Notes under the pieces: generated by a model | What the model saw: only the letters and a program-made list of their open reading frames with translations | Told to the model about the DNA's origin: nothing | The model's database searches: none | In this document: piece by piece, positions 30 through 17,600 of the stretch | Layout: every line of letters starts with the position of its first letter | How positions within the stretch are numbered: the first letter of the stretch is position 1 | Program-made: the position numbers and the translations under genes | From: Myxococcota bacterium | GTDB taxonomy: Bacteria > Myxococcota_C > UBA6777 | DNA length: 64,000 nt | Reading direction: 5' to 3' | NCBI GenBank assembly: GCA_023150835.1 | Contig: JAKLKB010000003.1 | Span: forward strand, 46,607-110,606

Positions 30-1520
30 TCACCCCACCGACGTCTGCTGCTTCGGCGAAGAAGTCCGCCATGACAGCACAATGATCCACACGCAGATCA
101 CCGCTGTTAACAAGAAATTACTCGACTCCCCCCACATCCGAGCGACCACACCACCAAGCAAAAATCCACCAAGATTCCCAAGGTGGATCATCGAAGTGCC
201 TAATCCCATGTATTTGCTGCGTTCCGAAGCCGCAACCTGCGTAGATATCACCGCATAAGGGAGGCTAGACAGCCCACTCAACCCACCACCCATCACAAAA
301 CGCGCAAACAACACCCACCCCCAAGGCGGCCAAAGCACCAACAAAAACGAACCCACCGCGATCATCAACGACGCATGCGACATCAAATGCCGCTCCCCCG
401 CATCATGCAAACGCCCCCACACAAACGACATCGCAAAGCTCATCACACCCGTTGCGCTCATACAAATGGACACAAACACAAGATCCTGACTCCACCAAGA
501 AGCCGAAACACGGCCCTCTGCGACCGCTTGTGTGATCAATTTCCCCGCATAGATCGCAAACACCGCTTGCGATAACGTCCACGCAAAGTTGCCCAACATC
601 AAGATCCCAAACGCCACTCGCAACGAGAGATTCCGCCATCCTTCGCCCATCGCTATCCAAAGCGCCACAAACGGATTGGCCGATGGACGCCATGTATCCG
701 CTGTTTTCGTCGTATCCGATGCGGTCGCTGTATCCGACACCTTCGCCGCATCCGATGCGGTCGCTGTATCCGACATCTTCGTCGTATCCGGTACGGTCGC
801 TGTATCCGACATCTTCGTCGTATCCGATGCGGTCGCTGTATTCGACATCTTCGTCGTATCCGATGCGGTCGCTGTATCCGACATCTTCGTCGTATCCGAT
901 GCGGTCGCTGTATCCGACATCTTCGTTGTGCCCGTTCGTTCAGCATCCGCAGGCAGCCACCACCAAGACACCAACGTCGTCAACAAGATCACGCCCCCGA
1001 TCAGCCAGTAGACGGGACGAAATCCAAGGGCGTGCGCCAAAGTCCCCCCGATCATCGGGCCAAGCACGAGGCCCACCGTGTTGGAAGATTGTAAGATCGA
1101 GATCGCACGACCTTGATGTTCTTCGGGGGTAATCGCGCTTAACAACCCCAGATTGGCCGCGATCACCCCCGACACCATCCCTTGCAACATCCGAATCAAC
1201 ACCAATTGGAGTGGAGACGTCGCAAAACCCATCAACAACTGCGTAATCCCCAACCCAACGATCGCACGCAAGACCTGTTTTTTGTGGCCTGTGCGATCCC
1301 CCATCCATCCCCAAAATGGCGTCGCGATCAAGGTCGTAAAAAAAGGCCCCGCCAAGATCAAACTTGTGTAAAACAACCGATCTGCATCCACAGTAACGGC
1401 AAGAAACGGGTCTTTTTCGAGATAAAACGGAACGAAGGTCAGACCAAGTGTCGTCGCCATCGTGACAAGAAATTGAACGATCCAAAGAATCACCAAAACA
1501 CTACGCCAAGAGACAGTCAT
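30..1520 (-). CDS. MFS transporter with internal 7x12-aa tandem repeat loop (TTKMSDTATASD)
   Basis: 496-aa ORF with about 12 hydrophobic helices and MFS-like loop motifs (GWMGDRTGHKKQ, GRLHDAGER). A central loop is encoded by a 36-bp tandem repeat. Confidence 0.75.
   Translation of the reverse strand: MTVSWRSVLVILWIVQFLVTMATTLGLTFVPFYLEKDPFLAVTVDADRLFYTSLILAGPFFTTLIATPFWGWMGDRTGHKKQVLRAIVGLGITQLLMGFATSPLQLVLIRMLQGMVSGVIAANLGLLSAITPEEHQGRAISILQSSNTVGLVLGPMIGGTLAHALGFRPVYWLIGGVILLTTLVSWWWLPADAERTGTTKMSDTATASDTTKMSDTATASDTTKMSNTATASDTTKMSDTATVPDTTKMSDTATASDAAKVSDTATASDTTKTADTWRPSANPFVALWIAMGEGWRNLSLRVAFGILMLGNFAWTLSQAVFAIYAGKLITQAVAEGRVSASWWSQDLVFVSICMSATGVMSFAMSFVWGRLHDAGERHLMSHASLMIAVGSFLLVLWPPWGWVLFARFVMGGGLSGLSSLPYAVISTQVAASERSKYMGLGTSMIHLGNLGGFLLGGVVARMWGESSNFLLTAVICVWIIVLSWRTSSPKQQTSVG
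700..956 (-). repeat. In-frame 36-bp coding tandem repeat (about 7 units) inside the MFS gene
   Basis: Near-perfect iterations of gtatccgatgcggtcgctgtatccgacatcttcgtc are seen directly. They translate on the minus strand to repeated TTKMSDTATASD. Confidence 0.85.
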
Positions 1521-1589: not shown

Positions 1590-3488
1590 TCACAGCGAGA
1601 TCATCGGGGGGGCATCGGTCGGATGCACCAAACGCTCGAGGCGCTGGGCTTCTTTCATCGGCTCGAACGTCGATGGATCAAGACAGTCCATTCCGCCGTG
1701 AGGTTGGGGGCCTGTGACAAGATGTTTGACTTGGTAGCGTGAATGAAAGATCCCGGGAGCGGCCATATACCCGCGCTCTATCGCAAGGGCCAGAGCTTGT
1801 GGATCCGCAAGCAACGGAGCCAGCGCATCAAGAGAAGGCCCTGCGCTGAGCAAAGCGGGCGAAGGATAAGGCAGTGCGCTCAGTTTCGCAATCTGCTGAA
1901 GCAAGAATTCTGCTTCGGAAAGCAAAAAAGCCCGACGTTCCACAACTTTTGGATCTTTCAAGTAGGGCAAGAGTTCATGTTGGTGTTGTTGAAAAACACG
2001 CACAGCGCGGCGCACCAGTTTGGAGCTATCGATCACATCTTCGGCTGTAGCGATGTGGTCGGCCTCGCAATAACTAACTTGGTGGATGATGTGGGGCTGC
2101 ACCATCATCTGCAACAGCGTGGAACGTGCGAGCTGATACTTGGCGATGGCAGGATCAGGATCAAGTGAGTCGATCCCTGTCCGAGTCTCTCGCCAGATCT
2201 TCGGTCTCTGCGGCGCTTTGGCGATCACTTGTCGAGCCAGTTCCAGCCCTGCGGTCATCTTCGCAAGATCCGCAAAATCGCTCGTCTCGCGGGGCTTATT
2301 AAACTGCATCTGCAACACCAGATCACGCGAGCCATTTTGCGACATCACGGCGCTAATCAGCGCATAATCCGCACAAAACACCGTATCATGCACCCATCGG
2401 GACGACCACTGGTTGGGATCGTTCATCTCCGTGGGGATGCCGTATTTCACCAACTCACGGATCGCTGCAATGTGTTCGACAATCGACTCAGGAACACTCA
2501 TCTCCCCGCGTCCATCCAAGACATTGAACCAATACAGCGGCACAGCTTGATGCGCGCCGATCAGCATCCCCGCTCTCACACAATCGCGCACAAACTCCAC
2601 CAGATCGACCACATGAGCATACGGCTTCAACGAAGGATAATTTCCCCGCTGTGCGGCCTCGACCATCGCCACAAGATCGTCAAACACTTGGTAGGGAACC
2701 CCCCCGTCGTTTTTGCGCTCTGCGAACACGTGCGGCTTTCCGTAATAGCGTTGCGACAGATCGGAAGAACCGATCGAGATCTCATCGATCACACGTTCGC
2801 TTGCGATACGGGCGATCCCTTCGACCGTTGGGCGGATGGTCTTGTCTGGAACACCAAAGTGGACCCGCAACACAGGGATCGGCGAGTCTTCGATCCGCTT
2901 TGTGTACGAATGACGGGCTTCTTGCGATGGGATCGGCAAGGGCGGTTCTTCACGATACGCATCGTTGGCGACGACCTGCTTTGCGAGAACATCCAACGCT
3001 TCGATGCGCGGAGGAAACCACTCCGCATGCAGCGCAGAAAGGATCTGCGTGCGCAAAGCCCCTTGGATGCCGAAAAAGTCCAATACACGGCTTGCACCGC
3101 GCATCCGATCATTGTCTTGCGCCATCGTCCAGATCGGGCAAGGCAGCGAAGACGCGATATCTTGCATCGCACGCATGGTCTCAGGCAGGCCCGCTAACGC
3201 GACCTTCCGAACGGCTTCGCCATGTTGCTGTTTCAACAAGCCGCTCTGCGCCAAACGCCCCAACAACCCCTGAAATAGCCGCACTCCCACATCCGGGCTG
3301 AGCCGATAACTCAACCCCAAAAACAGCGGATCATGCTCATGAATCGCTTGCAAGATGACTTCTTCGGATGCACCGGGAGGTAGCACGTGACACACGATCC
3401 CCGCCTTCTCCACCATGCGGCGGATCCGAAACAAACCTTGGGTATGTGGATCGTTACCAAGCGTACACAACACGCAGTGCATCGTCAT
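1590..3488 (-). CDS. Cobalamin (B12)-binding domain protein with large uncharacterized C-terminal domain
   Basis: N-terminal DxHxxG signature (GNDPHTQG), then an S-x-L (SYRLS) and Rossmann-like pattern that aligns with GlmS/MutS-type B12-binding domains. The remaining ~480 aa carry no recognisable motif. The start overlaps the upstream gene stop (ATGA), indicating translational coupling. Confidence 0.6.
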   Translation of the reverse strand: MTMHCVLCTLGNDPHTQGLFRIRRMVEKAGIVCHVLPPGASEEVILQAIHEHDPLFLGLSYRLSPDVGVRLFQGLLGRLAQSGLLKQQHGEAVRKVALAGLPETMRAMQDIASSLPCPIWTMAQDNDRMRGASRVLDFFGIQGALRTQILSALHAEWFPPRIEALDVLAKQVVANDAYREEPPLPIPSQEARHSYTKRIEDSPIPVLRVHFGVPDKTIRPTVEGIARIASERVIDEISIGSSDLSQRYYGKPHVFAERKNDGGVPYQVFDDLVAMVEAAQRGNYPSLKPYAHVVDLVEFVRDCVRAGMLIGAHQAVPLYWFNVLDGRGEMSVPESIVEHIAAIRELVKYGIPTEMNDPNQWSSRWVHDTVFCADYALISAVMSQNGSRDLVLQMQFNKPRETSDFADLAKMTAGLELARQVIAKAPQRPKIWRETRTGIDSLDPDPAIAKYQLARSTLLQMMVQPHIIHQVSYCEADHIATAEDVIDSSKLVRRAVRVFQQHQHELLPYLKDPKVVERRAFLLSEAEFLLQQIAKLSALPYPSPALLSAGPSLDALAPLLADPQALALAIERGYMAAPGIFHSRYQVKHLVTGPQPHGGMDCLDPSTFEPMKEAQRLERLVHPTDAPPMISL

Positions 3489-4837
3489 CCGACATCCTTT
3501 TGCTTTTTGTTGAGTTCACCGCGTAAATAACGCAGCAAATACTCCGTCTCAAACCGCGCAAGATTCCGCCCCGTGTCACGAAAATCTTGCGGATTAATGG
3601 CTCGGTAACGGTCGATCACTTCGCTGATCGGCTGATGTGCGACCCCTAGCCGCTTTGCCAGTGCTTCCAACGGAACCAGCCCTGTGGGGATATCTTCTTC
3701 GGCGTAGCGCTGTTGTGGATACGAACGCTCTTGAAAGTTCGGCGTCCGACCGATCGCGTCGGCCAACGACTCCCCCGGTATCCGATCGATACCGTAGGTG
3801 TAGCACAACCACAACTGCGCGGAGATCACGGTTTCGTTGATCGACTCCAACAACTCACCGCGCTTTCGGCGACGCGCACGTACCGTCAAGCTTTTCTCTT
3901 CATCCACCGCCTTCACTCGCGCCAAGACGTCCAAAAATTCAGCCTCGTTGTGATCGTCTTCAAATCCGATCACTTTGCATCCGGCAGCACGAGCGATCTG
4001 CAAACGGATCTGATCGATCTCTCCCACAACCCTTCCAACTTCGGGGTTTTGCGCGATCCCTTGAATGTAAAACGAAAACGTTTCTCCACGCGCTGCTGCC
4101 GCCTGAATCGCCTCATAGTTCAACACAAACGGCGCAGGATGAAACACCGCACCGATATTCCCAAGCGAAGTGGTTGCGGGCGTGCGGCTGTAAACCAGTT
4201 GTGGGAAAAGCCGCTTAATTTGTTGCAACAGGCGCGTGGAAACCTCACCATCCACCGAGGCCACCCAGCTACGCTTGCGACGCTTGATATAACTCGAACC
4301 CGGAGAATACGACTTACACGCATACGGGCATGTCTGCAACGACACGATCGGATACTGATCGTCCAATATCTCCCACAGATAGGGCGTGGCGAGTGTACGA
4401 GAAGGCGACAGCATCAACGGAATGCGCTGCTCAACCAAGCCATCCCGCATCAACCGCGCCGTGTCCTCGTGATACACCGACGGATGCGAAAACAAGATCA
4501 CATCGGTCTCAAAAAGTGCTTCCAGATCATGACCGACTTCGCTTTGACCAAGCGGAATAAACCGTTTTGTCGGTTCGATGGGGTTTTCAGGGCGTTGCAG
4601 TTCGATCCCGCCTTGGGCTTGCAAAGCACAAACGACCTCTTTCCCATGATCGGTCGTGCGCGCATAACCATACACCTCCACCTCTGGCATCTCCAACAAA
4701 TCCGCAAGATAGGCTTTCCCTGACTGCGTACTCAAACCGTAGATCCCCACCCGCAACACACGATCGTTCTTTTTCAAGCCTTGCACTGTCATCGCACTCG
4801 CTCCCTCCATAATCATCGGGGGCGGACTCCCCTTCAA
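3485..4837 (-). CDS. Opine dehydrogenase family NAD(P)-dependent oxidoreductase
   Basis: Rossmann N-terminus (VGIYGLSTQSG). Blocks NIGAVFHPAPFVLN and EEDIPTGLVPLEALAKRLGV match conserved octopine/nopaline dehydrogenase family blocks (NxxAVxHPxPxxLN; EDVPxGLVPL). The 4-bp overlap with the B12-binding gene suggests an operon. Confidence 0.75.
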   Translation of the reverse strand: MKGSPPPMIMEGASAMTVQGLKKNDRVLRVGIYGLSTQSGKAYLADLLEMPEVEVYGYARTTDHGKEVVCALQAQGGIELQRPENPIEPTKRFIPLGQSEVGHDLEALFETDVILFSHPSVYHEDTARLMRDGLVEQRIPLMLSPSRTLATPYLWEILDDQYPIVSLQTCPYACKSYSPGSSYIKRRKRSWVASVDGEVSTRLLQQIKRLFPQLVYSRTPATTSLGNIGAVFHPAPFVLNYEAIQAAAARGETFSFYIQGIAQNPEVGRVVGEIDQIRLQIARAAGCKVIGFEDDHNEAEFLDVLARVKAVDEEKSLTVRARRRKRGELLESINETVISAQLWLCYTYGIDRIPGESLADAIGRTPNFQERSYPQQRYAEEDIPTGLVPLEALAKRLGVAHQPISEVIDRYRAINPQDFRDTGRNLARFETEYLLRYLRGELNKKQKDVG

Positions 4838-5008: not shown

Positions 5009-8000
5009 TCAATTACAGTCGACTTTGTAGTTGATCTCGATGGTTTGGCTGGGTTGGGGTGTGCTGGCATCGGCAAAAGCAACCGATTGCGTGGTGGGAT
5101 CGAAGGTATACGTGGCGGGAGCCGCGACTTTTCCATCGACCGAGACGGAAAGCGTGTTGGCTGTAGCACTACGGGAGAGAAAGAACCGTCGTTGGAGGCC
5201 AAAGGTCGAAGCCGCAAGGGACTTGAGCGTCACGCTCCAATCGGGCGCACAGATCGACTCGGTGCTTCCGCCAAAAGCGCCTGCAAGTGTCCAATAACGC
5301 CCGTTGGTGGTCGCATCTTGGCAAGACTTCGCTGGCATCGGCGCTGTGATCGCGGAGATCCGCACGACACGGCCACGTTGCGAACCGCGCAGACTTTCAA
5401 AAAATTGTTGGTAAAAGCCCAAGGGTTGGGGGGATTGATCGGGTTCATCCGTGACAAAGATCACGGACAACGAAGCATCGTTGCGCAAAAAGCCCAAGTT
5501 GCAGTCGGGGTTATACAGCACAGGCGGCGTCAAAGCCCGATAAGCAGCCTCTAAGCCCTGTTCGACAGCATCGCCCGTCGTTCCGACTTGAACAAGCTGC
5601 TGAAAAGCCTGCAAAAGGTTCGGTGTTTGGGGCGTAAGGATCTTGTCGTTGCTGCCGACAAAACATCCCCCGGGGCGTTGCGTGACAGGGCCTTCTTTGG
5701 GAAGACTGGTCGTCGTCACCGCGATCCGAAAATCACTTTTGCGTGTTTGGGCTTCTTGCAAAAAGATCTGGAGGTTTTGCGATAGGCTTTGTTGGCGCTT
5801 TGCCATCGAAAAAGAGTCGTCGATCACAAACAAGATATCCGCCTTTGGACTTCCAGATTGTACGAAAATATCTTTTTGTGTATCCGAAGAAGTTCCCTGC
5901 GCTTGGATGGGAATCTCCATCTCAGGCAAAGCATCGGAGTTGTTTTGGATGCGCAGGATTCCTTGATCTTGCGTGGTATCTGTGGGCGAATACCCCAGTT
6001 CGATCTCTGCGGTTTGACCGAGTTGCAGCGTAAGCGGCGTGGGCGGAGCTTTGACGATAGAAAATTCTTTTGACGTGGCGCTGCTCAAGGCGATGTTTTG
6101 GACAGCAAGGGCTTGGGGACAAAGGTTGTAAAGGGTGACGCGCTGCGTGCGAGCGCGGCAAGCCGTCATCGTGTCGTCAAAACGGATATCCTCGGGAACT
6201 GCGCGGATGCAAAGGCGAGACGCACTGCCGAGCAATTTGAGTTTCATCTCGGGACGTTGCGGATCATCACTTTTGACGGTGAGCAGATTCTCGACCCAGC
6301 TTGCGCGGGTGGGGCTGTAGCGGATCTCGATCGGAAGCTGATCCGAAGGCTTGAGGATCACAGGCGTCCCGACGGGTCGGGCAAGTTGAAGCTCTCCGCT
6401 TTGCTGCGGTGTGCTGCCGTTTGGAACGGAGACCTCTGTGATCCGGCAATCTTTGAGTCCTTCGTTGACCAACGTAATCGAACGAACTTGGGTCTTTCCG
6501 ATCGGGATGCGGCCAAAGTTTAAGGCCGCAGGGTTGGGGGCAAGTTGACAGGCTTCGACGCGCACAGGGGCTTCGAGAGGGATCTCGATCTTTGGTTCGT
6601 CAGCGTCATCGCTTTCGATGATGATCTTGCCCTTGTCATCGACGTTATCGGATGGACGGTACTCAACGAAAAATTCCAACGAAGCGTTGGGAGCAAGACT
6701 CAAGACCGGCCATGTCGCGGGGATCATGATGTAATCTTTCGAGCTACTCGCATCCAACGCGATGCGCTTGATCGTGCAAGCGCGATTGCCTTGGTTCGAA
6801 AGCGTCACGGTGATGGTCTTCTTCGATGGAAAATTCAGCGTTTTTGGATCGCTTTTCAGGTCGCATCCATCGGTGACTGCGTACACAGGAACGCTCACCT
6901 GCGGCTGTTTTGGATCGCTGTTTTCTAACACAAGCGTTGCTTGTTGGCGTGAAAGATCACTGCCCTTGTAGATCACAGGAAGCTCAAAAGACTGCCCGAC
7001 AGGGATAGACAAGGGAAAGCGCACGCTTGGATCGACGGAGAAGGGGTTCCCTGCTGCACCTTGGATCTGCGCGGAAGTGACGGTCAGTTCGATCTCACCG
7101 CGAGAAAGGATGGCGAGCTTTCGCGTGGTCTCCTTTCCTTGCGAAGTCAGCGGGAAGATCAAAAACTCGGGAACCACTTGGATCGTTGCAGTCGCCGATT
7201 GGCCGCGCAGATTGATCGAGGGGCGCGCTGCGTTGGGTTCGGCTTCTTTGCCGACAAAAAACAGTTGGGCTTGATCTTCGCCTTGATCTTGGGGACTGTA
7301 AGTGACTTGTATCTTTTGGGCCGCAGCACCCGACTTGATCGTCATTGGCAGCGAGGCCGACGCCGAAAACTCTCGTTCAGCCCCTTCCGAAAGCGCGAAG
7401 CCGGCGATCTCCCAATCAGCGGTTCCTCGGTTGGAAAGCTCGCAGTCAAGCGACTTTTTCTCTCCGATGCGAACGCTGCCAAAGTCCAACGCTGGCACGC
7501 ATGAAAACACGGGCGACGGCGCGTTGACCAAGCTCAACAACCGCACCTCAAACTTCCCTTCTTGATCTGCGTTGTCGGCATCGCTCCACAGCAACAAGCG
7601 GCCACTGGCTCCGCCCCCTTCAAGCGGCGCAAAACGCAAAGCGATCTTGGCCGTTTCTTTCGGTTGTAAAGTCAGCGGTAGATCGGGCGCTTTCGCCAAA
7701 GCAAACGAGGGGTGTGTCCCTGCCGAGAGCTCCAATTTGGTCACTTTGACCACCAAGGTTTCGGGGTTGCTCAGCTCGACTTCCAGCACGCTCTCTTTTC
7801 CAACGGGTGTCAGCGGAAACACGAGGTTGGTCGGTGTCACCGCAAGCTTGCTTCGTTTTTGTTGGGTCACTTCATCGCAGTTGCAGCCGCTTCCCATCGC
7901 AAGCACCGACAAGATCGCAAAAAAACCAACACGCCCAAACCATGCGCGTGCTTCCAACCGCGTAACTCCTATCACAAAAAAACGGCCCAACGGGGGAGCG

Positions 8001-11000
8001 AAGCGTTGTCCGACAGCCGCTTGCTTTGCTGTACGGAGATCCCCGCGTCCCCCTTCAAACTTTCCCAAGCATTCTCCTTTGCGGCGGCGAAGCACAAACA
8101 GCAACAACAAACCAATCACCCAAAATGCCCGTTCTGCGGGCGGTTGTGTTGCAGAACAACCGCATCCTCCCGGAGATTGCTTTTCGGCGTTGGGGTCGTT
8201 GTCTCCGCTTCCGCCGTCCACGATCTTCGTACCTGAGCCGCCTTCGGTGTCTTTGGGTTCACTTGGCGGCGGTTCTTGCGTACCATCCGCAGCACACTCT
8301 CCCGCCTTACACACCTGCCCTTGGGGACATTGCAACGTCAAACAAGGATCATCGACGCACTTGTTGGCCGCAGGATCACAGATGCGCCCTTCGGGGCATT
8401 TCAGCGCAGGGCATGGATCTGCAAGGCACTTTCCGCCCACACACACCTCGCCCGACGGGCATTTCACGCTCGCGCATGGGTCCTCGACGCATTGCCCTTC
8501 CACACAGCGTTTTCCTGCGGAACAAGCGATCCCCACACAAGAATCAAAGCACTTGCCCAAGCGGCAGGCTTGACCGGGCTTGCACTTCGCCGCCAAACAA
8601 GCATCCGTTTCGCACTGCCCGTTTACACAAACCGTCCCCCCCGGGCAACCGAGCCCATAACACGAGTTGTCGCGGCACTTTCCATCCCGACAAAGCTGTC
8701 CTTCTGGGCAAGTGATCGCCGCACAAGCATCGACACAACGACCTGACAAACACGCCTTGCCTTCGGGACAATCGACACCTTTGCATGGATCGCCCACGCA
8801 AAAACCTTCGATACATTGGCCGTTGTCGCTGCAATCTTGGTCTTTCTGACACGTCGCGGTGCATTTGCCTTTATAGCAGCCTTGCCCGACTTGACATGGT
8901 GCGTTGTTGTCCACGAATCCATCGCAGTTGTTATCGATCCCGTCGCAGATCTCTTCGGCGGGCTTGGGCGCGGTGCAATCTTTCCAAAAACCGTTGATAC
9001 AAGTTTCTTTGCCTTCGCCACACTCGCTTCGACAAGTGCGCGGTTCGATATCGTCGATCTTTCCATTACAATCGTTGTCTACGCCATCGCAGACTTCGGG
9101 CTGTGGCGTGAGGCCGTCGCATCCGACAAAAACGCCCGCTTCACAAGAAGCTGTCCCTTTCCCACAAGCCCCTGTACAAGGGCGTGTTGGGATACCTTCA
9201 TCCACTTGCCCGTTGCAGTCGTTGTCTTTTCCGTCGCAGATCTCGGCTTGGGGCTGGGGAGCCGAACAACTTCCCCAGACTCCGGCCTTGCAGACCTCTG
9301 TCCCCGCTCCACAAGCTGTCTGACAGGGACGCGAAAGCCCGTTGTCCACCGAACCATCGCAATCTTCGTCGGTATTATCGCAGGTTTCGGGCTTGGGTTG
9401 GCGTGCCGAACAAGCGCCCCAAACACCCGCATTACAGATCTGTTCGCCTGTCCCACAGGCCGATGTACACGAGCGTTTCACACCATTGTCGACTTGCCCG
9501 TCGCAGTCGTTGTCGGTGTTGTCGCAGATCTCGGGTGTTCCTTGACCTGCGGTGGCACTACAGCGTACGCCGTTTCCGTTGGTCGCACATTGAAAGATGC
9601 CCGATTGTTGGCAAGGTCCGACACCTGCGCTGCATGCTTGCCCGAGTTGCGTGAAGGTTTCATCGATCTGTCCGTTGCAGTTGTTGTCTACGCCGTCGCA
9701 GATCTCGGCGGTCGCCGCTCCTGCCGATGCATTGCACTCCGTCCCTGATCCATCGGCCTTGCAGACGCTGGTCCCTGTCTTTTGGCAAGCTCCCACACCT
9801 GACGTACAGCTTTTGTTTTTGTCAGGGAAATCTTCGTCGACTTGTCCATCGCAATCGTTGTCCACACCATCGCATCGCTCGGCGGTGGGGATGACTTGGC
9901 CGATGCAGTTGCCCCATTGACCGCCCGTACAAGTCTGCGTGCCTTGCTTGCAAGGCCCTTGGCCCGCTGTTCCAGCAGCCCCGCTATAACATGGGCGCGT
10001 CGTCCCGTCCGTACACTGGCAACCTTCGTCGACTTGTCCGTCGCAATCGTTGTCTTTACCGTCGCAGATCTCGGGGCTAGAGGCTCCTGCGCTTGCGCTA
10101 CAAACAAGGCTTGCGCCATCCGCACTGCACAGGAAAGTTCCGCTGCGCTGACACTCTCCAAGCCCGACCGTACAGGCTTTTCCTTTATCCGAAAAGTTCT
10201 CGTCGATTTGCCCGTCGCAATCGTTGTCTTTGCCATCGCAAAGCTCCGTCGTGGGCGTTCCCGCAGAGACCGAGCATTGCGTGGCTGTACCATCCGCCCG
10301 ACAAACAAACGTACCGCTGCGCAAGCACTCTCCAAGGCCCACAGTACAAGCGGTCCCCTTGTTTGCGAAGGTTTCGTCGATCTGCCCATTGCAGTTGTTG
10401 TCTTTGCCGTCGCAGATCTCGGTGCTTGGCGTCCCTGCGCTCACCGAGCATTGCGTGTTGCTTCCGTTCGCAGCACACACAAAAACGCCCGTACGAAGGC
10501 ACTCTCCAAGGCCAACGGTACAAACCGCTCCTTTGTTTGAGAACGTTTCGTCGATCTGTCCGTTGCAGTTGTTGTCGATCCCATCGCATATCTCGGCGGT
10601 TGCCGTCCCTGCGGTGGCCGAACATTGCGTGCCGCTGCCATTTGCAGCACAGACGAAGATCCCCGCACGAAGGCACGCACCGATCCCCACCGTACAAGCC
10701 GTCCCCTTGTTCGTGAACGTTTCGTCGATCTGTCCGTTGCAATCGTTGTCCTTGCCATCGCAAAGCTCTGCTGTGGGTGTTCCTGCGGAGACAGAACACG
10801 TCACGCCATTTTGCGCAGCGTTGCATACAAGTGTCCCGTTGCGTTGACATTCTCCGACGCCCACCGTACAAGCCGTCCCTTTGGTCGGCCAAGTTTCATC
10901 GACTCGACCATCGCAGTTGTTATCGATCCCATCACAGATCTCGGCGCTGGGTGTCCCTGCGGTGACGCTACATTGAAGTGCCGTCCCTGCTGCATTGCAT

Positions 11001-12285
11001 TGCATGACACCTGTGCGCTGACAAGCTCCGACGCCCACCGTACAAGGCGCGCCTACACCCGGCAATGCGCATCCCGAGACAGTGATCTGGCAGCTTTGAC
11101 GGGCATATTCGACCCCATCACCATAAACACACACATCGAAAGCATACGCTCCTGCGCTCGTTCCATTCGGCGGCGTCACGGTAATCCCCAACGAATGAGG
11201 CCCCGTTCCTGTCGTGACGTTGGTCATCGCATCACCACTGCTCAGCCACGTTGCATAACTTGGCGGCTGATCTTTGCACAGTTCGATGCTTAGGCGGCTA
11301 ATGGTCGAAGACAGCGCTTGCACGGTTTGTTGGATGAATTGAGCGATGTTGGCATTGTTCGGAAGATTGCCTTGTTGATCGAGTTGGTAAGCGTTGCCCA
11401 ACGTTGTTTTCGAGTGCGTCTGCCAAAACTCAAAGACCCGCAACGGCGGCCCTCCGCCAAGACTGAGCTTGTCGGGACCGCTATAAAGCGTGATTAGCGT
11501 GATGTTGTTGTTCTTGAGTCCGTTGATGGTATCGATCCACTTGATGTCATCGGCATTTCCAGCTACGCCATCTCGCCCGGGATCAGGCCCTGTCGTCAAG
11601 GTGTACGGATTCACCACCAAACTACATTCGTGTGGAAGCGCATCGCCATACAACACAACGAAACGCTTCGATCCTGCGCGCCATCCGACGTTTGTATCGT
11701 TGTAAAGCTCCCATAGCGCCCGACCATACGAAGCGGGATAATCTGTGTTGGGGTCTGTGCTGATCGTCCACGTGTTGATCGCGTTCGAAACGGCTGTCTT
11801 GTTGACGGTTATCCCTTGATCCAAACGATACGGATAGTCTTGGCCCGAACCGTACAACACCGCACCGCCTGTCGAGGTTTGGTAATTACAATATTTATAC
11901 GAGTTTCTGTAATCCTTAAAAGAAAAAGCCCCGAAATAAGTATCTGGGATCGCTGTCGTAATCTGGTTCATAATGCTTGTGGAGGTGGCTTTGGCCTTTG
12001 CCACCTCATCCACCATCGAAGATGTCAAGTCACTCCCAAAGATCACATCCGCCTTGGGTGGAACGGACGGCAGCGTCAGCGAGATCGTGCGGCGGATGCT
12101 TTGCCCTGCCGTCAACGTATCGTTGCAAAGGTTGGTTGCGGCTTGCTGCACAACGCCCAACGCTGGCTCGCCTGTGTCCTTGTTTTTGCCTGTGATATCG
12201 GCTTGGTCGGGAGACACACAAGCCCAACTCCACCAAAATACCCCCATCCATACCATCCACGAACGCTGCTTCCACATACGCATAC
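5009..12285 (-). CDS. Giant secreted multidomain protein: signal peptide, vWA, about 20 Myxococcus cysteine-rich repeats, EGF-like Cys-rich modules, internal MYXO-CTERM-like tail, lipoprotein-like signal, repeated beta-sandwich domains and C-terminal vWA
   Basis: The ORF is 2506 aa from 12529. The likely true start is MRMWKQRSW at 12285, which has a GAGGAGAGGGAAG RBS and lies downstream of an intergenic repeat copy. Repeats of CDGxDNxCxGxxDE and CTVGxGxCxRxG are visible. PGGCGCSATQPPAERAFWVIGLLLLFVLRRRKGE sits mid-protein (coding about 8060-8170). It is followed by FFAILSVLAMGSGC (about 7885-7960). A DDSFSM MIDAS motif lies near the C-terminus. Confidence 0.7.
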
Positions 12286-12477
12286 TTCCCTCTCCTCTCA
12301 CACGCCTCTGTCGTTGCGCTCGCCAAACCAAGCAGACCGCGCACCCACACAGAACAAACAAAGCGGCCATACCGCACCTTGTCGAACCCCAAACCAAACC
12401 GCTCAAAAAAACTTTTATACACCCGCCTTTGAAGATTTCATCCCCACAAATCCCCCATGTTCGGACCACTTCAAGCG

Positions 12478-12592
12478 ACTCAGACGTCGGTTTGAAAAAA
12501 CGATGTTCTCTTCGCCTACACAGGGTCAAGGGAGCCGCGCTCTATGGCGGGGCGTGGGGCAGCGCCCCATACGCGCCTTGTTAAGGTGGAAA
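12478..12592 (-). repeat. Structured intergenic repeat family 1, copy E (5' leader of giant protein gene)
   Basis: Shares the blocks ggggcgctgcccc ... gcggctcccttgaccc(t/c)gtgt(a/t)ggcgaa.ag.acatcgtttttcaaacc.acg with five other copies. It is co-oriented with the gene downstream. Confidence 0.8.
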
Positions 12593-13114: not shown

Positions 13115-14590
13115 ATGCAGACGAAGCGACTTTTTTATCTTTTGACGCTCCTTGGTCTGATGGCTGTCCCTCATCTGATGGTGTCGGGTTGTGCAAGTCC
13201 CCGTTGTGGCGATGGTATCGTTCAGAAGGATTACACCGACTCAAGCGGTGCGACTGTGACGGAAGAATGTGATGACGGAAACAGCGACAACACCGATGGT
13301 TGCACCAGTTCGTGCAAGCTGGCCGTCTGCGGGGATGGGTATATCCAAACAGGGGTGGAAGAGTGCGACAACGGCAGCAAAAATGCCGATGATGCGACGT
13401 GTACCAAGTCGTGCAAGATCGCCAAGTGCGGTGACGGCCTTGTCCAAAAAGGTGAAGAGTGCGACGACGGCAACACCAACAACAACGATGCTTGCCTCAA
13501 CACCTGCGTCAAAGCCACCTGTGGCGATGGCTTCGTTCAAAAAGATGTTGAAGAGTGCGATGACGCCAACAAAAACAACAACGATTCTTGTACAAACGCT
13601 TGCAAACTAAACGTCTGTGGGGACGGCTTTGTGCATATAGGTGTTGAAGCCTGTGACGATGGAAACCAAGAAGACACCGATGGTTGCACCAAGCTTTGCC
13701 GCCTTCCGACTTGCGGCGATGGCATCGTCCAAAAAGGCGAAGAGTGCGACGACGGCAACAACACCAACACCGATGCTTGCCTCAATACTTGCATCAAAGC
13801 CTCTTGTGGCGATGGTATCATCCAAGCCGGAACCGAAGAGTGCGATGACGCCAACAAAAACAACAACGACGGATGCACCAACACTTGCAAGATCGCCAAA
13901 TGCGGTGATGGTTTCGTCCAAAAAGATGTCGAAGAATGCGACAACGGCCCCAACAACAGCGACACAGGCTCCTGCACAACCGCTTGCAAAAAAGCCACTT
14001 GCGGCGACGGCTTTGTCCAACCGGGCGAAGAGTGCGACGACGGCCCGAACAACAGCAACACAGGCGCTTGTACGCTTGCTTGTAAAAAAGCCAAGTGCGG
14101 TGACGGCCTTGTCCAAAAAGGCGTCGAAGAATGCGACGACGGCAACACCAACGACGGGGATTGGTGCAACGCAACCTGCAAACGCGAGTGCATCCTTGGA
14201 AGCGCCAAAAAACTCGATGGCAACAGTTGTTATATGGCCTTTAACACCACGCTATCTTGGCGTGACGCAGCAGCCGCTTGTTCGATCGTCGGAGCGCACC
14301 TTGCCAACATCGGAAGCGCCGCCGAAAACACCCTTGTCACCGACTTGATCAAGACAGGCGCAGCCGCTTGGATCGGTTTGACCGATCAATACGGCGAAGG
14401 CACCTTTGTTTGGGACGAAGGCAAAAACCGCTATACCGCCCCCACCTTTACCAAATGGGCCGCCAACCAACCCGACAACAACCCGGGCGGCAACGCAAAC
14501 TGCGCGCAGATATCCACCACAGGCGACTGGTCTGACGAAGCCTGCACCCAACTCAAACCCTACGTTTGCAAATACACTTGGCCTCAATAG
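13115..14590 (+). CDS. Lipoprotein with about 9 Myxococcus cysteine-rich repeats and a C-terminal C-type lectin-like domain
   Basis: Signal peptide with a VSGC lipobox. Repeats of CGDGxVQxGEECDDGNxxNNDxCxxxC. The C-terminus WIGLTDQYGEGTFVWDEG...CAQISTTGDWSDEAC...YVCK matches the C-type lectin WIGL / WxD / Cys pattern. RBS AAGAAAGGA. Confidence 0.8.
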   Translation: MQTKRLFYLLTLLGLMAVPHLMVSGCASPRCGDGIVQKDYTDSSGATVTEECDDGNSDNTDGCTSSCKLAVCGDGYIQTGVEECDNGSKNADDATCTKSCKIAKCGDGLVQKGEECDDGNTNNNDACLNTCVKATCGDGFVQKDVEECDDANKNNNDSCTNACKLNVCGDGFVHIGVEACDDGNQEDTDGCTKLCRLPTCGDGIVQKGEECDDGNNTNTDACLNTCIKASCGDGIIQAGTEECDDANKNNNDGCTNTCKIAKCGDGFVQKDVEECDNGPNNSDTGSCTTACKKATCGDGFVQPGEECDDGPNNSNTGACTLACKKAKCGDGLVQKGVEECDDGNTNDGDWCNATCKRECILGSAKKLDGNSCYMAFNTTLSWRDAAAACSIVGAHLANIGSAAENTLVTDLIKTGAAAWIGLTDQYGEGTFVWDEGKNRYTAPTFTKWAANQPDNNPGGNANCAQISTTGDWSDEACTQLKPYVCKYTWPQ

Positions 14591-14646
14591 CGAAGATGCC
14601 CTCCCTCCGTTTTCAACAGTTTTGCTCCGCTGAGGAGGTTTTTTCC

Positions 14647-17600
14647 ATGAGGCGATTCATTCTTTCCATCATCGGCATCCTTTGGATCGCCATCGCAGCC
14701 ACTTCGTGCGGCCCCGGCCCGTACTGCGGCGATGGAATCCCCCAAGAAGGCGAAGAATGCGACGATGGCAACTCCATCAATACCGATGGCTGTACTGCGG
14801 CTTGCAAAAAAGCCGTATGCGGCGACGGTTACATCCAAAAAGGCGTCGAAGAGTGCGATGATGGCAACAAAAACGCCGATGACGCCGCTTGTTCCAAATC
14901 CTGCAAACGCTCTCTTTGTGGCGATGGCATCGTCCAAAAAGGCGAAGAGTGCGACGACGGCAACAAAAACAACAACGATGAATGTACCAACGCTTGCACC
15001 AAAGCCACTTGTGGCGATGGCATCGTCCAAAAAGGCGAAGAATGCGACGACGGCAACAAAAACAACAACGATGAATGTACCAACGCCTGCAAACTCAACG
15101 TCTGCGGTGATGGCTTTGTCTTCGTTGGTGTCGAAGAGTGCGACGATGGCAACAAAAACGATGGCGACGGCTGCTCGAATCAATGCAAAGGCAGTCGCTG
15201 TGGTGATGGTGTTGTCCAAGCCAACGAAGCCTGCGATGACGGCAACAAAAGCAACAACGACGCTTGCTTAAACAATTGCACAAAAGCCCGTTGTGGCGAT
15301 GGTATCGTCCATCTCGGCGTCGAGTTGTGCGATGACGGCAAAGACAACGGCCCCGGCAAAAAATGTACAGCCCAATGCACGCTCCCGACTTGCGGCGATG
15401 GCATCGTCCAAGCTGGCGAACAATGCGACGACGGCAACGCTTCCAACAACGACGCTTGCCTCAATACCTGCGTCAAGTCCTCCTGCGGTGATGGCTTTGT
15501 CCAACCGGGCGAAGAGTGCGATGATGGCAACAAAAACAACCACGACGGCTGCACCAACGACTGCAAGATCGCCCGTTGTGGCGATGGCATCGTTCAAATC
15601 GGTGTCGAAGAGTGCGATGATGGCAACAAAAACAACCACGACGGCTGCCTCAATACCTGCAAACGCGCTGTTTGTGGCGACGGTGTTGTGCGCGCAGGCA
15701 TCGAAGACTGCGATGACGCCAACCGCGATAACACCGATGGCTGCTTGATTAACTGTCGATCGTATGATCCATGCGCCAACTTTCAGATCGATCAACTACA
15801 ACCTGCCGTCGCTTGCGTGGGACTTGTGCCCAACCGCATCAAGATCCTTGGCGATGGCTTCTTGCGTATCGACGGAACCGATCCCACCGTTCGTTTCCAA
15901 GGCAACCCCCTCACGATCACCAGTCTTACACAATGCCAGCCCGAACAAGGCAACTTCTTGCGCATCGATCGCTGCAAAGAGATCGAAGTCGCCCTCCCCG
16001 CTGGCCTCGGCGCAGGGGCCTATCAAGTGGCCGTCACCAACGCCACCACCAAACAATGCGAAGCCAAGGCGATCTTTAGTGTTGGCCCTCGACCCACTAT
16101 CACCCAAGTCCGTCCCAACGAGACTTGCGAAGGCCGCTTGACCAGCTTTACTTTGCTCGGAACAGGCTTTACCCCAAGCACTCAAGTGACATTCCGTCGC
16201 GGTGGCAATACCTTTTCTCCCAACAGCTTCCGTTATGTCAGCGCCACCGAGATCGAAGTGATCTTTAACGCCCTTGATCCCGGACAATACGACGTCACCG
16301 TCTCCAACGGTGCGGGTTGTGATTCCACGCTACCGCTTGCAGTGACGGTCTACAAAAATCCCCTTGTCTTCTTTGTCGATCCCGAAGTGGCTTACAACCA
16401 GATCAGCCTTCAAGCGACACTCTACTTGACAGGACTCAACGGCCCGGGCGTCACCTTTGTCGGTATCCGCCGCAGTGGTTCAGGAGATCCCTTTACCAGC
16501 GTGTCCTTTACCTTTGACCCAAGCCGCCCAAGCAAAACGCTAATCGAGTTGCCCAAGAACCTCACCCCCGACGAATACGACGTGTTGGTGCGGGATGCCA
16601 AAACGTGCGAAAACACCCTTCCCAAGGGCTTTAAGGCAACCAACACCACGACGCTCTTTGTCAAAGCCATCGATCCGCCCTTTGGTTGGGCGCAAACCGA
16701 AACAGCCGTCACACTCACCTCCGAAAATCCAGCCCCCGCTGGCAAAGTTCCCTTTCAAAACGGCGTCCGTGTCTACCTCAGCCCAAGCACAGGAACAGGG
16801 CTTTCCTCACCGCTCAACGCGGTAGCCTTTGTCAAATCCACCGAAGTGACGGGCCTCGTCCCCAAACTTCCTGTCGGCGAATATGACGTTGTCGCCGTAA
16901 ATCCCGATGGAACAGTCGGTGTTCTACAAAAAGGCTTCCGCATCACCCAAGAAGCCCCTCCCGTCATCGCCAGCATCGCTCCCGGATCGATCCCCAACTC
17001 CAGCACCGAAACCGTGATCGTGCGTGGCCAAGGCTTCCGAACAGGAGCCACGGCCCAACTCGAATGTCGCGATCCTGCCGGAACGATCACCACACGAACG
17101 ATCCCCATCACCAACACCCAAAGCACTCAAGTCACGCTGTCTATCGCTTCGGGGATATCCGCAGGCTCCGTTTGCATCGTTCGCGTCACCAATACGGACG
17201 GAACCTACGGCGAATTCTCGGCGCTTGGTGTGACGAACCCCGCCGAAAATATCGGTGCGCCCAAGCTGTTGACCTCCAACCTTGTGACGGGACGCCGCGC
17301 CTTGGCCGCCATCTCAGGGCGTCCCACACTCAGCGCACGCTTTCTCTACGTCTTGGGTGGCGATACAGGAACCGTCGCAAACGCCCTTGATTCCGTCGAA
17401 GCCGCACCCGTCAACCGTTTCGGAGACGTCGGCGCATGGGCCGCCCTCCCCGTAAAACTTCCCAACCGACTGACCTTTGCCTCGGCCCAACGCATCGAAC
17501 GATTCATCTATATCGTCGGCGGAAACAACGGTGCATCAGCGCAAAACAAAGCCTACCGTGCCGAAGTCTTGCGCCCAAGCGATGCTCCGCAGATCCGCGA

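Follow-up and report, generated by a model that had tools for sequence, protein, structure and literature searches.

The existence of a new family of B12-dependent proteins was predicted in 2009 by Zhang, Rodionov, Gelfand & Gladyshev (PMC2667541), and in the same year Mavromatis et al. described Hore_09740/09750 of Halothermothrix orenii, with 'distant similarity to methionine synthase' (PMC2626281). As reported then, the family had a distant B12-binding domain at its N-terminus, always adjoined a pfam02317 octopine/nopaline dehydrogenase, had D-Ala:D-Ala-ligase-type genes nearby in some genomes and was known from 11 genomes, mostly of thermophilic anaerobes, that represent 4 phyla (PMC2667541; PMC2626281). 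The 632-aa B12 protein encoded in the window (the whole 64-kb stretch of Myxococcota DNA analyzed here) matches this family as described, in its domain, in its pfam02317 adjacency and in the overlapping phyla and genera of its relatives. The pairing is therefore not new, since both the family and its dehydrogenase adjacency were published in 2009 (PMC2667541; PMC2626281). Full-text literature searches found no biochemical characterisation of the family or the pair since then. The present analysis adds a fold of the glutamate mutase E (GlmE) type, paralog subfamilies, fusions to MutL and ATP-grasp domains, glycan-locus and exporter contexts, and a Myxococcota-like genome in which the pair occurs with an MFS pump.

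Both open reading frames were present on the minus strand, and a third, co-oriented gene, absent from the earlier note, was found 69 nt downstream of the B12 gene:

3485-4837, minus strand: opine-dehydrogenase-family gene (OpDH), listed ORF with start TTG at 4837, 450 aa
3485-3488, minus strand: ATGA, the OpDH stop codon overlapping the B12 gene start codon (codons checked)
1590-3488, minus strand: fused B12-binding and glutamate-mutase-E-like protein, 632 aa, predicted adenosylcobalamin-dependent mutase
30-1520, minus strand: MFS transporter, drug:H+ antiporter (efflux) type, third in the putative operon (Pfam MFS_1, 6e-48)

Because 507 and 347 database homologs were found for the two proteins of the pair, these are real genes and not chance ORFs. 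The ATGA overlap noticed in the earlier note is real. The true start of OpDH is probably ATG 4792 (M16 of the listed ORF), which would give a protein of 435 aa, because a putative ribosome-binding site, GGAGGGAG, lies 8 nt upstream of this ATG and the alignment of homologs begins only at about residue 20 of the listed ORF. The operon contained only OpDH, the mutase and the MFS gene, and the flanks in locus L001 held unrelated genes.

OpDH matched the C-terminal alpha-helical Octopine_DH domain of Pfam (PF02317) at 79.7 bits, above the cut-off of 30 (E 2.9e-22), and the nearest structures to its two-domain fold were solved opine dehydrogenases. It was compared with N-(1-D-carboxyethyl)-L-norvaline dehydrogenase (CENDH) of Arthrobacter (PDB 1bg6), with residues numbered as in the listed ORF:

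4139-4141, minus strand: codon of OpDH His233, aligned with CENDH His202
3707-3709, minus strand: codon of OpDH Arg377, aligned with CENDH Arg292
3692-3694, minus strand: codon of OpDH Asp382, aligned with CENDH Asp297
4271-4288, minus strand: subfamily-specific, nearly invariant basic motif IKRRKR

The three CENDH residues, the catalytic His-Arg-Asp of the literature, have counterparts that were each at least 95% conserved among 42 OpDH subfamily members. CENDH is about 75 aa shorter than the window protein, which has an insertion before the C-terminal helices and a variant dinucleotide-binding motif, GIYGxSxQSG, instead of the canonical GxGxxG/A, though with its glycines and beta-alpha-beta element in place. 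The IKRRKR motif, also at least 95% conserved in the 42 sequences, was located on a beta-hairpin of the nucleotide-binding domain (model strands 165-171 and 175-180), whereas CENDH has VNAIKGAM at this position in the 1bg6 alignment. This hairpin may serve to bind a substrate of negative charge, or as an interface with a partner.

The 632-aa protein was resolved into the following regions:

3114-3488, minus strand: B12-binding Rossmann-type domain, residues 1-125, also with GLSYRLSP and AGLP motifs
3435-3452, minus strand: DPHTQG motif of the B12 domain
3444-3446, minus strand: His15 of the B12 domain
2889-3113, minus strand: helical linker, residues 126-200, aligned by secondary structure and hhalign with the GlmE N-terminal helices that precede the barrel
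2049-2888, minus strand: predicted TIM barrel of the GlmE/KamD/OraE type, residues 201-480
1593-2048, minus strand: C-terminal helical region with a small beta-hairpin, residues 481-632, colinear with the C-terminal part of GlmE

The B12 domain was recovered at fold level and carries the DxHxxG...SxL...GG signature (base-off/His-on type), of which DxHxxG is conserved. Both family assignments in the earlier note held. GlmE ranked first in both fold searches, and an E-subunit-type TIM barrel is present. The C-terminal region accordingly resembles GlmE in its modelled fold, the link being mostly structural; a GlmE-like fold was among the outcomes that the earlier note, guessing at a 'mutase-like' enzyme, had named for a structure check. 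The residues of the barrel that are invariant in the superfamily are R208, H210, D235, Q246, K/R288, Y290, W320, D325, R327, E354, N356, R364, D368, Q393, K410, R436, H469 and E475 (2064-2066).

Pfam and NCBIfam gave no family-level match for the 632-aa protein, including the Met_asp_mut_E (PF06368) and methylaspartate mutase E models. Searches of the PDB by phmmer and by profile, with the window protein or the core-family profile as query, found no GlmE or other mutase, only a B12 domain (E 0.014), and hhalign gave no result when the core family was set against one GlmE sequence. A 48-sequence superfamily profile was then compared by hhalign with a 17-sequence GlmE profile, which was shallow because the GlmE homolog search gave only relatives at least 78% identical. 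The alignment was colinear over 446 columns with an E value of 2e-4 and a probability of only 47%. In two independent alignments E475, a glutamate in 43 of the 48 superfamily members, fell on GlmE E330, which contacts the adenosyl ribose, and by hhalign the NE(L)DG of the B12 family fell on GlmE N170-E171-GGG. In the same low-confidence alignment the 'arginine claw' by which GlmE holds glutamate was not preserved: R66 fell on H210 (with R208 at i-2), R100 on Q246 (with R247 next to it) and R149 on Y290 or K288 (K/R288 at i-2). The Y177/Y181 loop was absent there, and the position of GlmE E171, glutamate in 19 of 24 sequences and E, Q, K or V across the family, was V323 in the window protein. 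Since the claw residues and the Y181 loop were unmatched in this low-confidence alignment, the comparison suggests that the substrate of the B12 protein differs from that of glutamate mutase.

Glutamate mutase of Clostridium cochlearium (PDB 1cb7/1ccw) differs in further respects. It consists of two subunits, GlmS and GlmE, whereas here S precedes E in one 632-aa chain, and identity is about 13%. Its partner is methylaspartase in a fermentative context; the obligate partner here is an opine dehydrogenase, and the context is biosynthetic (glycan or export). Its accessory protein MutL/GlmL is absent from the operon and from core-family loci.

The co-occurrence of the two genes, raised as a check in the earlier note, turned out to be far stronger than could be known from a single sequence. 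Of 58 related loci from more than 10 phyla, 50 had an OpDH gene on the same strand, seven of the eight exceptions being cut contigs, and OpDH was directly upstream of the B12 gene in all four divergent paralog subfamilies examined. The two genes overlapped or were at most 50 nt apart in about 26 loci, while in Bacteroidota they were 1-7 kb apart with other genes between. The B12 family is conserved at 45-60% identity over more than 10 phyla, and across loci the identity of OpDH to its window counterpart co-varied with that of the B12 protein (r = 0.85, n = 45). What would have spoken against the earlier note, a housekeeping B12 enzyme in a pairing lost among relatives, was not found. Among the paralogs, P0149, P0150 and P0155 carried a C-terminal MutL (PF13941) fusion, and only P0137 (1.5e-6) and P0132 (3.6e-4) gave matches to Met_asp_mut_E (PF06368), both weak. 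One paralog carried a fused ATP-grasp domain of the glutamate-handling RimK/GshB type, and a Peptidase_C26 gene of the gamma-glutamyl-hydrolase type followed it.

Two kinds of context were found for the pair. ATP-grasp ligases within glycan loci accompanied it in 26 loci, which also held DegT aminotransferases, glycosyltransferases, Wzx or Wzt, and ArnC-like and flippase-like genes; loci for surface glycans in gut Bacteroidales (Alistipes, Rikenellaceae, Muribaculaceae) were among them. One associated ligase (ATP-grasp c2) matched the PylC family weakly (TIGR03909, 61.7 bits vs a cut-off of 248). MFS pumps accompanied the pair in 11 loci plus the window and belonged to two different subfamilies, one in Myxococcota/Gemmataceae, where the same gene as in the window follows the pair, and one in Smithella/Vulcanimicrobiota. 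These proteins resemble efflux subfamilies, either MdtG and FslB or the DHA2 type. For the window gene, the best NCBIfam matches, which scored far under cut-offs, were MdtG and FslB, an exporter of rhizoferrin; it is of efflux type by family likeness, from which the direction of MFS transport cannot be read. In 21 further loci the pair stood alone, with neither pump nor ligase. No recurrent third gene was detected beside these stand-alone pairs (Amphibacillus, Halolactibacillus, Thermotogae, an 'archaeon' MAG, Tissierellia), whose neighbours were unrelated housekeeping genes (PTS, GH1, IMP dehydrogenase, CTP synthase, GGDEF and others).

The best reading of these data, which we hold with an even balance of confidence and doubt, is a two-enzyme module, here part of a small three-gene biosynthetic operon, that makes a rearranged amino-acid-derived acid, exported in this organism. 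OpDH would reduce, with NAD(P)H, the imine formed from an amine and a 2-oxo acid to an N-(1-carboxyalkyl) amine. The B12 protein would be a single-chain equivalent of glutamate mutase, its cobalamin-binding 'S' domain ahead of the 'E' barrel, binding adenosylcobalamin base-off/His-on through His15 and catalyzing a radical 1,2-rearrangement. Its substrate would probably not be free glutamate but an acidic amino acid or the N-carboxyalkyl (opine) derivative of one. Acting in sequence, in either order, the two enzymes would yield a rearranged (e.g. beta-branched) di- or tri-carboxylic acid, which the MFS pump would export in the source organism, other Myxococcota and Gemmataceae. In Bacteroidota, Bacillota, Hydrogenedentota and Cloacimonadota it would instead be joined by ATP-grasp ligases to amino sugars on surface glycans.

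The earlier interpretation as a whole is partly supported. An 'opine' product fits both the chemistry of OpDH and the adjacent MFS pump, but the alternative of a 'metallophore' found no specific support. In the staphylopine/pseudopaline pathways (CntKLM with exporter CntE/CntI) a nicotianamine-synthase-like CntL and an uptake system are present; the window operon has neither, a B12 mutase stands in place of the aminobutyryl-transfer step, and the pair is tied to glycan loci in about half of its lineages. That these lineages have the pair beside ATP-grasp ligases in surface-glycan loci suggests a product used to build decorated glycans rather than to chelate metal. In logic only, the module recalls PylB-PylC-PylD, with which it has three elements in common: a radical mutase yielding an amino acid with a methyl branch, an ATP-grasp ligase joining this to an amine, and an NAD-dependent dehydrogenase. 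However, PylB depends on radical SAM instead of B12, PylD does not belong to the opine dehydrogenases, and homology of the pathways is not claimed.

The fold ranking, E475 on E330, NE(L)DG on N170-E171-GGG, the MutL fusions with weak Met_asp_mut_E matches, and the paralog with the RimK/GshB-type fusion and Peptidase_C26 gene would also agree with a genuine fused glutamate mutase. Such an enzyme would convert L-glutamate to (2S,3S)-3-methylaspartate, which OpDH would condense with pyruvate or another 2-oxo acid, or deaminate oxidatively. We consider this unlikely: neither Pfam nor NCBIfam matched the window protein to MutE, the alignment failed to recover the Tyr181 loop and two of the three claw arginines, the E171 equivalent varies and is Val here, and no methylaspartase or other methylaspartate-pathway genes lie nearby. 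Opine dehydrogenases work reversibly, and CENDH, the closest relative of OpDH, originates from a catabolic setting. The MFS protein might import an opine-like or unusual amino acid, to be cleaved oxidatively by OpDH, after which the mutase would rearrange one fragment for fermentation, as in the clostridial methylaspartate route. Many pair-bearing hosts are anaerobic fermenters (Thermotogota, Tissierellia, Halanaerobiales) and the two genes stand alone in 21 loci; however, the 26 biosynthetic glycan clusters with ligases, glycosyltransferases and flippases, the lack of recurring downstream catabolic genes and the efflux-like MFS subfamilies make a catabolic role similarly improbable.

An aminomutase dependent on PLP and adenosylcobalamin, like lysine 5,6- or ornithine 4,5-aminomutase, would shift an amino group so that OpDH could act on the new amine. 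Known aminomutases bind PLP through a lysine in the same polypeptide as the B12 domain, whereas no Lys is invariant or nearly so in residues 1-200 of the B12 family. Here the B12 domain lies at the N-terminus, a different domain order from KamDE/OraSE, both fold searches put GlmE and not an aminomutase at the top, and MutL, the accessory protein that occurs as a fusion, is of the glutamate-mutase type, so that this identity is quite improbable. We regard a corrinoid methyltransferase or other non-radical B12 protein as very unlikely; the 'distant similarity to methionine synthase' of the H. orenii protein points that way, but neither a helical cap before the B12 domain nor a pterin- or Hcy-binding barrel (MetH-type features) was found in the 632-aa protein. 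It is just as hard to credit that the OpDH-like protein is an obligate redox or structural partner, e.g. a reducer of inactive cob(II)alamin. The extremely tight and ancient adjacency, also present in every paralog subfamily examined, would agree with this, and IKRRKR could form an interface, but the catalytic His/Arg/Asp triad is conserved and the Bacteroidota genes lie 1-7 kb apart; we know of no precedent for such a reductase. A CarH-type B12 photoreceptor was rejected, there being no helical bundle or DNA-binding domain and the barrel being enzyme-like, as was a B12-radical-SAM enzyme (no CxxxCxxC motif; OxsB only a weak Foldseek match, TM 0.18).

Extending the preferred reading of a biosynthetic OpDH-mutase module, we tentatively propose that the superfamily is an uncharacterised class of adenosylcobalamin radical enzymes with an obligate OpDH partner. 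It would rearrange the carbon skeleton of an acidic or N-carboxyalkyl (opine-type) amino acid on which no B12 enzyme is known to act, and so give a new branched polycarboxylate building block, secreted by some bacteria and ligated by others, among them gut Bacteroidales, onto amino sugars of their surface glycans. If true, this would be notable for B12 enzymology because, to our knowledge, only about a dozen adenosylcobalamin-dependent reactions are known. In gut Bacteroidales it would tie B12 supply directly to cell-surface chemistry, and the MFS-coupled pairs of Myxococcota and Planctomycetota may give a new secreted metabolite. For what was a 'B12-binding protein of unknown function' there is now a hypothesis open to test: that it is a fused mutase of GlmSE type, for which substrates can be proposed and genes taken from cultured hosts.

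A Pfam survey of 12.5-34 kb of the window revealed DUF4215 repeat proteins, hydrolases and similar, and no genes for B12 synthesis, adenosyltransferase or MutL; a MutL-type reactivase and an adenosyltransferase were likewise absent from the operon. Rfam searches for riboswitches or leaders at gathering thresholds gave none in 11 loci with long upstream gaps and none in the whole window. A 36-nt tandem repeat at 706-926 encodes a (TTKMSDTATASD)n insert in the central loop of the MFS protein.

Three genes lie co-oriented on the minus strand of the window:

30..1520, minus strand: ORF C, MFS transporter, 496 aa
1590..3488, minus strand: ORF B, B12 protein, 632 aa
3485..4837, minus strand: ORF A, opine-dehydrogenase (OpDH) family, 450 aa as listed, with a TTG start

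The ATGA at 3485-3488 combines the stop of ORF A with the start of ORF B, confirming the overlapping pair of an OpDH gene and a B12-domain gene described in the earlier note, and ORF C starts 69 nt past ORF B. The TTG start listed for OpDH (window 4790-4837) is probably wrong, because an in-frame ATG at 4792 (M16 of the listed ORF) is preceded at 8 nt by a strong ribosome-binding site, GGAGGGAG, and because OpDH homologs lack the first ~20 residues of the listed ORF and align from about residue 20. No known RNA elements were found in the whole window using Rfam. Within the MFS gene, a 36-nt tandem repeat at window 706-926, with 6.1 copies that match at 94%, codes for (TTKMSDTATASD)n at aa 198-258, in the transporter's central loop. 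The insert looks recent, since the MFS homolog of L001, a related Myxococcales locus, is 28 aa shorter than that of the window.

Upstream of ORF A, on the same strand and after a 216-nt gap, a secreted-type protein of 2506 aa with many Cys-rich CxxGxGxC repeats is encoded (window 5009-12529, minus strand), and its gene contains 174-nt DNA repeats at 10140-10792. Genes for two DUF4215-repeat proteins adjoin it on the plus strand (13115-14590 and 14566-18660); one of the proteins carries a C-type lectin domain and the other TIG/Kelch matches. Such a content of Cys-rich and DUF4215 repeat proteins is typical of Myxococcota, and a link to the operon is not evident.

ORF A scored 79.7 bits against Pfam Octopine_DH (cut-off 30), and its membership indicates a real opine-dehydrogenase-family enzyme. 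Among solved structures, sequence searches gave a single significant relative, N-(1-D-carboxyethyl)-L-norvaline dehydrogenase (CENDH, PDB 1bg6), with an E value of 4.7e-18 for the protein and 2.9e-25 for the OpDH family profile. His233, Arg377 and Asp382 of OpDH align with His202, Arg292 and Asp297 of CENDH and are at least 95% conserved among 42 subfamily members. The subfamily is set apart by a variant of the glycine-rich motif, GIYGxSxQSG, and by an almost unvarying basic stretch, IKRRKR, in a beta-hairpin (window 4271-4288, residues 184-189 of the listed ORF). IKRRKR is restricted to the mutase-associated OpDH subfamily, the corresponding position in CENDH being VNAIKGAM, and the hairpin could serve in binding a polyanionic substrate or as an interface with the mutase.

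For ORF B, the Pfam B12-binding match at residues 4-63 was below threshold (25.2 bits vs a cut-off of 32.1), and searches of NCBIfam and of PDB sequences gave nothing useful. The motifs DPHTQG (3435-3452) and GLSYRLSP were kept in 24 homologs from many phyla. An AlphaFold model built from the alignment of these 24 homologs was confident (pLDDT 87.6, pTM 0.89). When it was compared with the PDB by Foldseek, the E chain of glutamate mutase (GlmE) ranked first (1cb7_B, E 3.8e-13), which bore out the suggestion that the protein is mutase-like; lysine 5,6-aminomutase, ornithine 4,5-aminomutase and acyl-CoA mutases followed. The model and the GlmE match therefore give the following predicted architecture, that of a fused, glutamate-mutase-like B12 protein:

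residues 1-125: 'S' domain
residues 126-200: helical linker
residues 201-480: 'E' barrel
residues 481-632: C-terminal helical part

At the sequence level, weak support for kinship with GlmE was also present. A profile of 48 superfamily sequences aligned colinearly with the GlmE profile over 446 columns (E 2e-4, probability 47%), the GlmE query having been verified against 1cb7_B, and an HMM search placed the C-terminus in the same register. In this 47%-probability alignment the invariant E475 of the B12 protein matches GlmE E330, which contacts the adenosyl ribose, and W-F-N-E-L-D-G-R-G matches W-T-S-N-E-G-G-G-I of GlmE. One rival reading is a plain fused glutamate mutase. In the same uncertain alignment, the three substrate arginines of GlmE fall at H210/R208, Q246/R247 and Y290/K288 with no arginine matched, and the Tyr177/Tyr181 loop is absent. 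At the position of the catalytic E171 of GlmE, 19 of 24 family members have Glu and a few have Q or K; the window protein has Val (V323, 2520-2522). Since the arginines are unmatched, the Tyr loop is missing and the E171 position is variable, the B12 protein probably shares its cofactor chemistry with GlmE and acts on a different substrate, as far as this uncertain alignment can be read. Two other rivals for the same protein are a PLP aminomutase and a methyltransferase.

The most conserved feature was the pairing itself. With each species represented by one genome, a scan collected 58 loci from Myxococcota, Planctomycetota (Gemmataceae), Chloroflexota, Bacteroidota, Bacillota, Thermotogota, Hydrogenedentota, Vulcanimicrobiota, Synergistia, Smithella and one 'archaeon' MAG. 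A same-strand OpDH-family gene was located within 7 kb of the mutase gene at 50 of them, and the two genes overlapped or were separated by at most 50 nt at about 26. Cultured hosts of the pair include Amphibacillus marinus (L041), Halolactibacillus alkaliphilus (L043), Natronobacillus azotifigens (L031) and Thermoanaerobacter sp. X514, in which a B12-protein gene adjoins the OpDH gene Teth514_2108. At seven of the eight loci without OpDH, the contig ended 0-315 nt from the mutase gene on the usual OpDH side. Only L017, from a Bacteroidales MAG, lacked an OpDH gene despite flanks of the full 8 kb; there it may lie outside the fetched flank, because the related locus L019 has OpDH 6.8 kb downstream. 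Homologs of OpDH and of the mutase shared contigs. The identities of the two proteins to the window pair covaried (r = 0.85, n = 45). An Octopine_DH gene was also immediately upstream in all four divergent paralog subfamilies looked up, indicating that the association is older than the superfamily split. The interpretation given in the earlier note is supported in part, as to the mutase-like protein and the conserved pair. At four loci from Smithella, Vulcanimicrobiota and Synergistia (L026, L037, L038 and L056), a core-family mutase (45-48% identical) was accompanied by a far more divergent OpDH of ~390 aa, which scored 66-84 bits against the subfamily HMM compared with 570-717 for the others.

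In the reading proposed here, OpDH would couple an amine and a 2-oxo acid reductively, and the B12 enzyme would carry out a 1,2-rearrangement like that of glutamate mutase, initiated by adenosylcobalamin, either ahead of this step or following it. The product in the window organism would be a rearranged, amino-acid-derived polycarboxylate that is pumped out; for a metallophore, raised earlier as a possible product, no specific support was found. We put the chances of this combination of coupling, rearrangement and export at about even, and the fold and family assignments are much firmer than the statements on substrate, product and export. The pairing alone would also suit a rival in which OpDH is a mere redox partner of the B12 protein; the conserved residues shared with CENDH are in line with the proposed coupling. 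Another rival, a catabolic module, has to be set against the genomic contexts. In the 58-locus tally, an ATP-grasp ligase was found at 26 loci and an MFS transporter at 11 and in the window, never both, while at 21 loci the pair stood alone among unrelated genes. The ligases were LAL/PylC-like, 'sugar-transfer-associated' or Ddl-like, and their loci also carried DegT-type sugar aminotransferases, glycosyltransferases, Bac_transf initiating transferases, Wzx or Wzm/Wzt, ArnC-like GT2 and flippase-like proteins. Such surroundings suggest that an acid, once synthesised, would be joined through an amide bond to an amino sugar of a surface polymer. By analogy only, the combination of a mutase, an ATP-grasp ligase and a dehydrogenase recalls PylB, PylC and PylD in pyrrolysine synthesis. 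One MFS subfamily directly followed the pair in Myxococcota, including the window, and in Gemmataceae, and a DHA2-type pump accompanied it in Smithella and Vulcanimicrobiota.

The pair is not new as an observation, because it was described in two papers from 2009: as a predicted B12 family (Zhang et al., PMC2667541) and, in the Halothermothrix orenii genome paper, as the same operon, Hore_09740/09750 (PMC2626281). A Thermoanaerobacter transcriptome paper reported only up-regulation of OpDH in an ethanol-adapted strain. A full-text literature search found no biochemical characterisation of the pair, and the window genes belong to this known, predicted and biochemically uncharacterised family. 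Added here are the GlmE-type fold assignment with the fused S-E architecture, the paralog subfamilies that keep OpDH, the MutL and ATP-grasp fusions, a taxonomic range that is far broader and takes in gut Bacteroidales, and two mutually exclusive output contexts. The pair, although not new, raises a question for B12 enzymology that can now be tested sharply.

Searched exhaustively with an HMM, 1.84 billion representatives yielded a superfamily of 478 proteins, with a tight core family (about six representatives at 50% clustering) and several divergent subfamilies beyond. Glutamate mutase operons encode MutL as an accessory protein, and a C-terminal MutL domain (PF13941) was fused in three superfamily proteins (P0149, P0150 and P0155), of which those with full length have about 1230-1270 aa. 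At L067, the locus of P0150 (7001-10801), an Octopine_DH gene lay directly upstream, with Mur-ligase and FemAB genes nearby on the opposite strand. One further protein was fused to a RimK/glutathione-synthetase-type ATP-grasp domain and had a weak Met_asp_mut_E match, and another was fused to a Peptidase_M15 domain. The compact paralog locus L068 (35-4463) consists of Octopine_DH, a fusion of a mutase-like protein with a RimK/GshB-type ATP-grasp domain, and a Peptidase_C26/GATase of the gamma-glutamyl-hydrolase type; the make-up of this three-gene unit is a hint that the paralog is involved in glutamyl chemistry. Of the 48 superfamily sequences in the alignment, 22 have Cys in place of the Asp of DxHxxG (CxHxxG), with His and Gly kept; divergent paralogs with this variant include P0129, P0132, P0133, P0135 and P0137.
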